NCBI GenBank assembly: GCA_033762835.1
Contig: JANRLG010000117.1
Location: forward strand, 2,201 to 66,200
Direction of reading: 5' to 3'
Length of the DNA: 64,000 nucleotides
From: Thermoanaerobaculia bacterium
Lineage (GTDB): Bacteria > Acidobacteriota > Thermoanaerobaculia > Multivoradales > DATKCC01
Shown here: positions 61,638 to 63,396 of the stretch, piece by piece
Numbering within the stretch: position 1 is the first letter of the stretch
How the letters are laid out: every line of letters begins with the position of its first letter
Program-made: the position numbers and the translations under genes
Notes under the pieces: generated by a model
Database searches by the model: none
What the model was told of the DNA's origin: nothing
What the model saw: only the letters and a program-made list of their open reading frames with translations

Positions 61638-62984
61638 CTATTCCGGCGAAAAGGCGTGACGGGGATCGCGCCGGGCGAGCCCCAGGTAGCGGGCGAGCCG
61701 GCGAGCGAGCTCGACGGTGGCGCGCTCCTGGCTCGCGGCCTCGGCGAACAGCCGCCACGCCGCCAGGGCTTCGCGATGAATGCCCAGCGCGGCGAAAGTC
61801 GAGACCATGCCCACGGCGAGCTCCTGCACCTCGGCCCGGCGCCCCTGCTCGAGCCACAAAATGGCGAGATCGAGAGAGACCAAGGCCGCGTCGTACACCG
61901 ACTGCTCGCGCAGGAAACCCTCTTGGGTGACCCGCAACTCCATCTCCGCCTGGACCGTGCGCCCGAGGCCCGAGGCCACCAGGCCCTTGACCCAGTGATG
62001 GCGCAGCTGGGTGTAGGGGTCAGCGAACTCGGCGTAGAGGCTGCGCGATTCGTCGAGCAGCGCCGCCGCCAGCGGGAAGTGGCACAGCTCGATCAAGCCG
62101 ACGATTTCGTTGTGAACGCTGGCCCAGTACATCCGCCGGTCGGCCGTGGTGTCGATCAGCGGGCGGACTTTGGCGAGGGTCTCGAGCATGCGCTCGGGCA
62201 GCCCCGCGGCCATGTGGACCGTGGTCAGCAGCAGGTAGGTCCGCGCCACCTCCCGGTCCTCGCCCAGCGAGGTCAACAGCTCGGCGGCGGTCGTGAGCAA
62301 CGACTCGGCTTCCCCGAAACGCCGCTGATCACGGCGCAGTGCACCGGCCAACGAACGTAGTTCGGCAAGAGTGCGCAGATCCGTGACGGATTCGTGGCGG
62401 ACGATGGCGGCGGCCCGCTCGAAGCGCCGATCCGCCTCCGGCAAGTCCCCCGCGATACGGGCGGCGTTGCCGAGCAGGGCCCAGGCCCGCGCGGTGCCCG
62501 CGGTGAGCCGGGTTTCGAGGGCAGCGGTTGCCCCTTCGCTGCGATTGGCCGTCCGGAGGGCCAGCTCGGCCCACATCGCGGACTCGTCGGGCCGGCCCGG
62601 CAAGCTGTCGAGGGCACGGGCGAGCATCGCTTCGACGACCCAGGGCCCCCGCAGATGACGGCGAGACAGAAGGACGCGGTCGAGCCGATGGTCCGGGGCC
62701 AGCCTTTCGAGCTGGGTCACGAAGCGCCGGGCCTCACGGGCTTCCGGTGAATCGTCCGGCGAGGCCGAACGGCGCCGGGCACCGGGAAAGGCGATGACCG
62801 CGCCCGGCGCCTGGCGGGCGCGACGCACGGCCACAAAGGCTTCGAGGGCGGCCCGACAGGTCGGGCAATGGCGAGCTGCCTCGGTCATCAGAACGCGCTC
62901 GAGTGCCTCCGCGGACACGGAACCCCGATCGAGCTCTGCAAGCAGCTCGCGCGAAAGATGATCTTCATGGCTCGGCGGCAGCAT
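61638..62984 (-). CDS. TPR-like all-helical protein, paralog B, with N-terminal His/Cys putative zinc knuckle
   Basis: RBS GGAGGA before ATG 62984; EDHLS...RHCPTCR; ARAWALLGNAARI, RRFGEAESLL, HHWVKGL, YDAALVSLDLAILWLEQGR. Confidence 0.82.
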   Translation of the reverse strand: MLPPSHEDHLSRELLAELDRGSVSAEALERVLMTEAARHCPTCRAALEAFVAVRRARQAPGAVIAFPGARRRSASPDDSPEAREARRFVTQLERLAPDHRLDRVLLSRRHLRGPWVVEAMLARALDSLPGRPDESAMWAELALRTANRSEGATAALETRLTAGTARAWALLGNAARIAGDLPEADRRFERAAAIVRHESVTDLRTLAELRSLAGALRRDQRRFGEAESLLTTAAELLTSLGEDREVARTYLLLTTVHMAAGLPERMLETLAKVRPLIDTTADRRMYWASVHNEIVGLIELCHFPLAAALLDESRSLYAEFADPYTQLRHHWVKGLVASGLGRTVQAEMELRVTQEGFLREQSVYDAALVSLDLAILWLEQGRRAEVQELAVGMVSTFAALGIHREALAAWRLFAEAASQERATVELARRLARYLGLARRDPRHAFSPE

Positions 62985-63111
62985 CGACGTCCTCCGTGCG
63001 CGGTCCTCTCGCGTTTGGCTGGACACTATCGTACACGAGCTGCGAACGGATCGGGACTCCCGCGGGAAAAGATCCTCGGTCCGCGCCTCCCCGCCCTCGG
63101 TGCGAACTGGC

Positions 63112-63396
63112 TCAACCGAAGGGATCGGCGGCCACTCCGGCGTCCGCGTCGTCGGTTTCGCCGGCCACCGGAATCACCGTGCGGCTGCGGCCGAAGGGGT
63201 CGGCGGCGACGCCGGCCTCGAGCAGCTCGTTTTCCACGTTGCCCGTGGAGACCGGGGACGTGACACCGATCCAGTTCCAGAACAACGCGAGCCAACCCCA
63301 GGCGCTGCCCTCCTCCCGCTGGGCATGGACCGGGAAAGCGAGGCTGGCCGTCAGTACGACGATAACGAGTCCGGCGGAAAGCTTCTTCGCGCTCAT
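63112..63396 (-). CDS. Small secreted precursor peptide B with two copies of AGVAADPFG
   Basis: RBS AAAGGAGA; signal peptide ending FPVHA; AWGWLALFWNWIG helix; core repeated, second copy at the C-terminus. Confidence 0.85.
   Translation of the reverse strand: MSAKKLSAGLVIVVLTASLAFPVHAQREEGSAWGWLALFWNWIGVTSPVSTGNVENELLEAGVAADPFGRSRTVIPVAGETDDADAGVAADPFG

Follow-up and report, generated by a model that had tools for sequence, protein, structure and literature searches.

The DNA analyzed here, hereafter the window, is a stretch of 64,000 nucleotides from a Thermoanaerobaculia bacterium of the phylum Acidobacteriota (GenBank assembly GCA_033762835.1, contig JANRLG010000117.1, positions 2,201 to 66,200). 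It contains two cassettes, A and B, in each of which a gene for a small exported peptide (pepA or pepB) lies beside a gene for a tetratricopeptide repeat (TPR) protein (TPR A or TPR B), and both cassettes are read on the minus strand. They represent a real, conserved and apparently undescribed two-gene module that combines an RRNPP-like pairing of peptide and TPR protein with ZAS anti-sigma or XRE heads, and whose function we infer in the sections below.

Organization of the two cassettes

The features of cassette B, in window coordinates, are as follows.

63404 to 63409, minus strand: Shine-Dalgarno sequence AAGGAG of pepB, 7 nt 5' of the pepB ATG, read from the sequence
63112 to 63396, minus strand: pepB, from its open reading frame (ORF) and translation a 94-aa exported precursor with signal peptide, Trp-rich helix, acidic linker and two DPxG cores
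63322 to 63396, minus strand: Sec-type signal peptide of pepB, MSAKKLSAGLVIVVLTASLAFPVHA/Q, residues 1-25, with cleavage predicted after VHA (AFPVHA/Q) from the n, h and c regions in the sequence
63262 to 63303, minus strand: Trp-rich amphipathic segment of pepB, AWGWLALFWNWIGV, residues 32-45, read from the sequence
63190 to 63216, minus strand: pepB core copy 1, AGVAADPFG, residues 61-69, followed by Arg
63115 to 63141, minus strand: pepB core copy 2, AGVAADPFG, residues 86-94, followed by the stop codon
61638 to 62984, minus strand: TPR B, 448 aa from ATG 62984 (Shine-Dalgarno sequence ACGGAGG), or 462 aa from the alternative GTG 63026; predicted to be cytoplasmic, with about 7-8 TPRs behind a ZAS-like head (Pfam TPR_12, AlphaFold2, Foldseek)
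62847 to 62984, minus strand: putative zinc motif region of TPR B, ZAS-type anti-sigma-like, from the alignment of its subfamily
61668 to 62747, minus strand: superhelix body of TPR B, residues ~94-453, from the AlphaFold2 secondary structure
61592 to 61614, minus strand: terminator-like hairpin 3' of TPR B

The TPR B gene lies downstream of pepB at a spacing of 85-127 nt, and ATG 62984 is its most plausible start. No terminator-like hairpin was found between the two genes; since the only one follows TPR B, pepB and TPR B probably form one operon. No signal peptide or transmembrane segment was seen in the TPR B sequence.

Both members of cassette B are real genes under purifying selection. A TPR B ortholog (P0002) is 83% identical, and comparison with an orthologous cassette of 83% identity (L003), which comes from a groundwater metagenome, gave a dN/dS of 0.37 at a dS of 0.85 for pepB and a dN/dS of 0.10 for TPR B. 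The pepB core copies showed four synonymous differences and no non-synonymous ones.

The features of cassette A are as follows.

27892 to 28143, minus strand: pepA, an exported precursor of 81-83 aa ending in EGPQSDPNG and stop, with possible starts at 28143 and 28137, of which ATG 28137 is likely
27895 to 27921, minus strand: pepA core EGPQSDPNG
26521 to 27792, minus strand: TPR A, 423 aa from ATG 27792 (449 aa from the alternative TTG 27870), without a ZAS or helix-turn-helix (HTH) head

The original prediction, made from the window, had described for copy B a 94-aa ORF with ribosome binding site, Sec signal peptide, Trp-rich helix, acidic linker and core followed by a TPR gene, and had placed a second such layout with the core EGPQSDPNG at 26521-28143. 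All elements of copy B are present, and so is the second layout, whose TPR protein is a paralog of TPR B (31% identity over 299 aa, E value 6e-18). On TPR A, the alignment of a hidden Markov model of the TPR family begins only at position 47.

Peptide and TPR genes are paired in the genome and across the order

In the assembly from which the window comes (5.58 Mb, 68% GC; hereafter the own genome), tblastn found 19 TPR paralogs, the neighborhoods of which make up about 1% of the genome. A loose filter for peptides (ORFs of 55-140 aa with a signal-peptide-like N terminus and DPxG) returned 31 ORFs, 13 of which lay within 800 nt of a TPR paralog, where about 0.3 would be expected by chance. Three further family-like peptides stood outside this count: one at a contig end (C227), one beside a divergent TPR-like ORF (C59) and one true orphan (C305). 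The TPR paralog at positions 32838-34129 of contig C29 adjoins a DPxG peptide. Its tblastn match falls into two pieces with a gap between them, and one long ORF is missing, possibly through a frameshift that made this copy a pseudogene. Two contigs of about 2.2 kb each (C285 and C286) carry near-identical cassettes whose peptides differ at several core-flanking residues, and these may be strain variants or a collapsed assembly repeat.

A profile built from 27 TPR homologs matched 37 of the 41 genomes of the order, the highest copy number in one genome being at least 41. Among genomes sampled across the phylum it matched 13 of 301, 12 of them in the same class. In the near-complete relative G026, a DPxG peptide was present in 15 of the 16 regions fetched around family matches. 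When the loci retrieved from genomes of this order were pooled with those of the own genome, 116 of 161 TPR genes had an adjacent peptide gene, giving 105 distinct peptides. The enrichment of DPxG ORFs beside TPR homologs that had been predicted is thus massive, both in the own genome and across the order.

The pair was kept across three arrangements, with the peptide gene on the same strand and either upstream or downstream, or else on the opposite strand. Genomes carry 15 to more than 40 diversified pairs, and in some soil and groundwater Acidobacteriota the peptide/TPR family accounts for up to about 1% of genes. The identities of TPR proteins and of their cores also co-diverge (Mantel r = 0.32, 0 of 2000 permutations). 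The adjacency of peptide and TPR genes is far beyond chance, and the two are a real gene pair.

The peptides share a repeated DPxG motif

Each peptide has 1-6 copies of the family motif, [DE]-A-G-x-x-[IML]-D-P-[ND]-G. We collected 173 repeat units from the 105 peptides; D-P-x-G is present in all 173 by definition of the unit. Gly occupied position -4 in 156 of the 173 units, Ile, Met or Leu position -1 in 129, and Asn or Asp position x in 124. The residue after the motif was most often Arg (40 units), followed by a stop (32) and Leu (18). Two to six repeats were found in 45 of the 105 peptides; DPxG formed the very end of 32 peptides, and in 58 the end lay no more than 3 aa away from it. With signal peptides judged by their n, h and c regions and an AxA-like site, 97 of the 105 peptides had such a cleavage site, at a median position of 29. 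An aromatic-rich segment before the first core, defined as at least two Trp or Phe residues in a 14-aa window between signal peptide and first core, was likewise present in 97 of 105.

These unit counts identify x-G-x-x-x-D-P-x-G as a true family motif, for which the C-terminal place is the commonest but not universal. The motif that had been read from the two window copies therefore holds, while its strict placement at the C terminus does not. The expectation of variable core positions is also borne out: Gly at -4 and D-P-x-G are conserved, and other core positions vary. The remainder of the precursors is less diverged than had been stated, as conservation also covers the signal peptide and the aromatic helix.

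No family was found for the peptides in Pfam, NCBIfam or PADLOC. We also considered the Trp-rich segment as a second transmembrane helix that would leave the tail in the cytoplasm, and rejected this topology because the segment has only about 14 residues in B and is charged and amphipathic in A.

The TPR body resembles peptide-binding TPR superhelices

The AlphaFold2 model of TPR B, built on the alignment of the TPR family, is an all-helical superhelix of about 8 TPRs with a predicted local distance difference test (pLDDT) score of 86 and a weaker N-terminal part of 90 residues. The top Foldseek matches in the Protein Data Bank (PDB) were the peptide-binding TPRs of LGN/Pins (4a1s, 6hc2 and 3sf4), with template modeling (TM) scores normalized to the target of 0.6-0.7. 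The best bacterial matches were Rap receptors, including RapJ-PhrC and phage Rap-peptide complexes, with a target-normalized TM score of about 0.6, no better than LGN; MalT domain III was also among the matches. On the model, these matches amount to likeness at the level of the fold only.

Eight residues are invariant in the family: N187 (in an LGNA motif), R190, R232, R235, W345, D379, R418 and E419. By TPR register, the invariant polar residues occupy helix-A positions 2, 5, 9 and 12, with N187 at position 9 and Arg at position 12. In Hop and LGN, these helix-A positions are the groove-facing contacts with the ligand. By this register rather than by measurement on the model, the invariant residues would face the groove.

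When the full TPR alignment was run as a profile against the PDB, Rap appeared at E values of 4e-6 to 5e-5, behind designed TPRs, LGN and kinesin light chain, a generic rather than a diagnostic result. Searches of Pfam, NCBIfam and PADLOC gave only generic TPR matches for the TPR proteins, and with the PADLOC models for anti-phage defense neither TPR protein and neither peptide had a match. The names of the homologs in the source records are only "TPR repeat protein" or "XRE-family regulator." Membership in NsdA_fam_reg was rejected, with 32 bits against a cutoff of 75.

Many family members end in the conserved tail RA[RQ][RH][DN]P-x-L-[R]-F, of which the D/N-P motif loosely recalls the peptide core. 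TPR B ends in ARRDPRHAF (window 61638-61680), and the protein of locus L001 in KARHDPGLRF. A pseudo-ligand or autoinhibitory role of the tail is possible.

A TPR protein encoded beside a secreted peptide could also act as a partner switch coupled to secretion, binding the C-terminal repeats of the unexported precursor until export frees the regulator or changes its state, on the model of TPR class II chaperones of type III secretion with their substrates, or of FlgM, which is controlled by export. Re-import would then be unnecessary, as precursor and TPR protein arise in the same compartment; some TPR chaperones are known to serve also as co-regulators of transcription, such as IpgC with MxiE; and in B no terminator separates the two genes. 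However, Sec substrates are exported fast and do not normally build up in the cytoplasm, the peptide gene lies on the opposite strand in many cassettes, and the dozens of diversified paralogous pairs and the multi-copy cores are left unaccounted for. We regard such a switch as improbable.

Many of the TPR proteins carry ZAS-type or HTH heads

The subfamily that contains TPR B has an N-terminal signature, H-x24-26-H-x3-4-C-x2-C, in which H9, C40 and C43 (numbering of the subfamily alignment) never vary and at least 90% of members have H35. In the PDB, the profile of this alignment matched DdvA (3.5e-6), ChrR (8.5e-6) and RslA (1.8e-4), and Pfam zf-HC2 was matched by 9 of 30 subfamily members. 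From these sequence matches, the N terminus of the subfamily is assigned as a ZAS-type anti-sigma domain. TPR B itself (in the 462-aa numbering) keeps H23, C54 and C57, and has Glu at the column of the canonical second His, with H53 adjoining the first Cys. We also considered the TPR proteins as membrane anti-sigma factors with a periplasmic TPR domain, and rejected this arrangement, since there is no transmembrane segment between head and body and the HTH paralogs share the linker.

In many paralogs elsewhere, an XRE HTH domain is fused at the same N-terminal place on the same TPR body. The peptide genes of these HTH-type partners are on the opposite strand and encode Cys-bracketed cores, G-C-x-I-D-P-x-G-x-C. 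The class of peptide thus follows the class of receptor, in that Cys-bracketed peptides accompany HTH receptors and linear peptides accompany ZAS receptors. At six loci (L001, L002, L051, L054, L056 and L059), an XRE-HTH-TPR gene faces an opposite-strand peptide gene with 2-3 Cys-bracketed cores, and a second regulator gene, either a second HTH-TPR or a short XRE, is often present.

Relatives of the TPR genes are linked to ECF sigma factors

Among more distant homologs, from other orders of the same class, a ZAS-TPR gene and a gene for an extracytoplasmic function (ECF) sigma factor occurred in the same locus in 14 of the 14 loci examined, and no peptide gene was found in any of them. The soluble ZAS-TPR proteins of these loci (L036-L049, in genomes G079, G095, G109, G122 and G146) have a canonical HxxxCxxC motif. 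An ECF sigma/ZAS-TPR pair without a peptide is probably the ancestral state of the TPR family. Within the order, an ECF sigma gene adjoins 23 of the 161 TPR genes, and at least 7 loci in different genomes (L012, L052, L084, L085, L121, L133 and L137) are tight operons with the order peptide, ECF sigma, ZAS-TPR. The original guess of a protein-protein, Rap-like output is strengthened by these operons and by the ZAS head of the subfamily.

The arrangements read as an evolutionary series, from a sigma/anti-sigma pair, through the operon of peptide, sigma and anti-sigma, to the pair of peptide and anti-sigma, which is the dominant form and includes B, and on to peptide and HTH regulator. In the own genome, one locus (contig C305, positions 68422-71263) has an ECF sigma gene directly 5' of a gene for a 757-aa TPR-family protein and no peptide gene; it is the only family member there in a classical sigma/anti-sigma arrangement. 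Another contig of the own genome (C254, positions 11688-13620) carries three tandem ECF sigma genes whose products are 50-60% identical to the sigma factors of the triple operons, with no anti-sigma, TPR or peptide gene as a neighbor. By this sequence likeness, the array is a candidate shared target in trans of the ZAS-TPR proteins that lack a sigma gene.

Gene neighborhood

The genes that neighbor the window cassettes encode a UbiA prenyltransferase, a membrane protein, an M23 peptidase and a porin-like ORF. As had been noted originally for modifying enzymes, HTH proteins and transporters, none of these adjoins either window cassette, and neither does a protease. No neighbor family was recurrent in about 125 related loci.

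These neighborhoods bear on the suggestion that the peptides are precursors of ribosomally synthesized and post-translationally modified peptides (RiPPs), with DPxG cores modified or cyclized by enzymes and the TPR protein as a recognition or scaffold element. The layout of leader and core and the precursors with several cores do resemble cyanobactins and related RiPPs, and some relatives have cores bracketed by Cys. However, no modifying enzyme, protease or transporter adjoins the window cassettes or recurs in the approximately 125 loci, the partner protein carries DNA-binding or anti-sigma heads, and the Sec signal peptide would put the precursor out of reach of cytoplasmic RiPP enzymes. The RiPP-like option, which had been raised for the window copies, thus finds no support, and we consider it very improbable.

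At window positions 58197-61556, the UbiA-family prenyltransferase gene (plus strand, Pfam 1.6e-23) is divergent from a gene for an 801-aa polytopic membrane protein without a Pfam hit. This pair is unrelated to cassette B and may form a glycolipid or arabinan-type module.

A proposed peptide signal and its cytoplasmic receptor

We propose that the module encodes an exported peptide signal together with its sensor, a TPR protein in the cytoplasm that acts as an anti-sigma factor or adaptor, and give this reading a probability of about 0.5. It is based on the adjacency independent of arrangement, the multi-copy precursors, the peptide-binding fold, the interchangeable heads, the joint switching of peptide and receptor class, the co-divergence of the two partners, and the OppA-type proteins. 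As to the last, the own genome encodes two OppA/DppA-type binding proteins (SBP_bac_5), which indicate capacity only.

According to this proposal, A and B would each be a cognate pair of a Sec-exported pro-peptide and a cytoplasmic TPR sensor. The pre-peptide would be exported and its signal peptide removed, and the aromatic helix would serve as a pro-region or membrane tether. One or more short G-x-x-h-D-P-x-G units would then be released, which in B would be two identical AGVAADPFG peptides, the first followed in the precursor by Arg. The peptide would return to the cytoplasm via a peptide permease and bind the concave groove of the TPR superhelix. In B, binding would alter what the ZAS-type head holds, the likeliest partner being an ECF sigma factor encoded elsewhere, with the C254 array as the candidate. 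Copy A, which has lost the head, would be an adaptor or sponge. Of these steps, we infer cleavage, passage beyond the periplasm, return to the cytoplasm, binding and release of the sigma factor.

Several observations weigh against this proposal. Sigma adjacency is depleted among the peptide-linked TPR genes (8 of 116, versus 15 of 45 for the others; odds ratio 0.15, p = 6e-5), and no sigma gene (sigma-70 region 2) was found near the 14 peptide-paired cassettes of the own genome, the window copies included. Because of this depletion across the order and the missing sigma neighbor in the own genome, an anti-sigma output of TPR B is an extrapolation. TPR B has lost the canonical second zinc-ligand His, and the whole head is missing from TPR A. 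The host is a diderm, so that the peptide must exit and re-enter through two membranes or act from the periplasm only. In 93 non-redundant pairs, a mutual-information scan that compared peptide positions -3, -2, -1, +2 and +4 with 453 TPR columns was dominated by phylogeny, its top columns (e.g., 23, 54 and 57) mostly mirroring the split between the ZAS clade and the HTH clade with its Cys-loop peptides. Finally, adjacency and co-divergence fit equally well a TPR protein that merely regulates the peptide gene.

This last possibility, a regulator beside its regulated product, is the main rival. The TPR protein would sense some other cytoplasmic cue and control the neighboring gene for a secreted effector, which could be a peptide that acts on membranes or binds metals, a component of the matrix or a factor resembling a bacteriocin, and would not be a TPR ligand. 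Regulators commonly adjoin their targets; the peptide gene is the first gene of the triple sigma/anti-sigma operons and would therefore be sigma-dependent; the conserved Trp-rich amphipathic helix resembles membrane-active peptides; the distant ECF sigma/ZAS-TPR pairs of the same class do without any peptide gene; and the covariation scan gave no signal specific to the groove. On the other hand, no immunity, export or receptor genes recur nearby in the approximately 125 loci, and a tandem motif with conserved flanks, often followed by Arg or a stop, is typical of precursors that are cut into identical peptides. The peptide class also switches with the receptor class, and the number of diversified pairs in a genome, 15 to more than 40, suits a set of specificity pairs better than a single type of effector. 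On balance, we consider a regulated effector somewhat unlikely.

The peptide/receptor reading can be extended to a network across this diderm order, in which 15 to more than 40 pherotype-like DPxG peptides per genome would each be read by their own ZAS-TPR anti-sigma factor or HTH-TPR regulator, with many receptors that lack a sigma gene, that of cassette B among them, converging on a few shared orphan ECF sigma factors, those of the C254 array. The origin of such a network would lie in an ordinary sigma/anti-sigma pair and would be separate from that of RRNPP. We offer this extension tentatively, as possible and still doubtful.

Relation to known systems

The module most resembles the RRNPP/RRNPPA systems, especially Rap-Phr and also NprR-NprX, PlcR-PapR and AimR-AimP. 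Like these, it places a small gene for a Sec-exported pro-peptide beside the gene for a putative cytoplasmic TPR receptor of about 450 aa and occurs as many diversified paralogous pairs per genome. Some of its receptor subfamilies have an HTH domain, as PlcR and NprR do, and others have none, as in Rap, whose output is protein-protein. Rap proteins also supplied the best bacterial structural matches of the TPR B model. Tandemly duplicated cores are found in some RRNPP precursors as well (PMC11343458). In contrast to RRNPP, the family sits in a diderm phylum (class Thermoanaerobaculia) and shows no specific sequence homology, with Rap (~1e-6) lying among generic TPR matches. The non-HTH head is a putative ZAS anti-sigma domain, whereas Rap has a 3-helix bundle, and an aromatic pro-helix and a G-x-x-h-D-P-x-G turn motif are conserved in the peptide. 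The original prediction of an RRNPP-analogous pair therefore stands in its genomic expectations; since the TPR family is not detectably RRNPP, the resemblance is one of logic only.

With the ZAS anti-sigma factors (ChrR, RslA, RsrA and DdvA), the family shares, in the subfamily of TPR B, the N-terminal zinc signature, of which TPR B itself lacks the second His and TPR A the whole domain, and its relatives have a co-transcribed ECF sigma gene immediately upstream. It differs in that its proteins are soluble with a TPR sensor domain, and in that most peptide-linked members, both window copies included, are without an adjacent sigma gene. With the TPRs of LGN/Pins and Hop, it shares the top structural matches and an LGNA-type helix-A motif with the invariant Asn N187; those proteins, however, are eukaryotic scaffolds without a regulatory head, and the likeness is that of a generic TPR superhelix.

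The work on RRNPP_detector was framed around Bacillota (PMC10075063). In a full-text literature search, we found no papers combining RRNPP with Acidobacteria and none on peptide-linked soluble ZAS-TPR anti-sigma factors, and the literature searched held no description of a genetically encoded secreted peptide as the input of an anti-sigma factor.

Implications

Signalling by peptides through TPR receptors in the cytoplasm is considered a defining trait of Bacillota and their phages and plasmids, and quorum sensing in Gram-negative bacteria is thought of as based on small molecules. If the cassettes are signalling systems, they would be a convergent invention of an RRNPP-type circuit in a diderm, and one tied to control of ECF sigma factors, which would make the peptides a new class of input for anti-sigma factors. 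If the network reading is true, a diderm would for the first time be seen to sense quorum or kin with peptides and cytoplasmic receptors, and an anti-sigma factor would for the first time be gated by a peptide. Signalling by the module, if borne out, would give access to the social biology of a phylum that is poorly represented in culture, and its peptide/receptor pairs could serve as orthogonal parts in synthetic biology.

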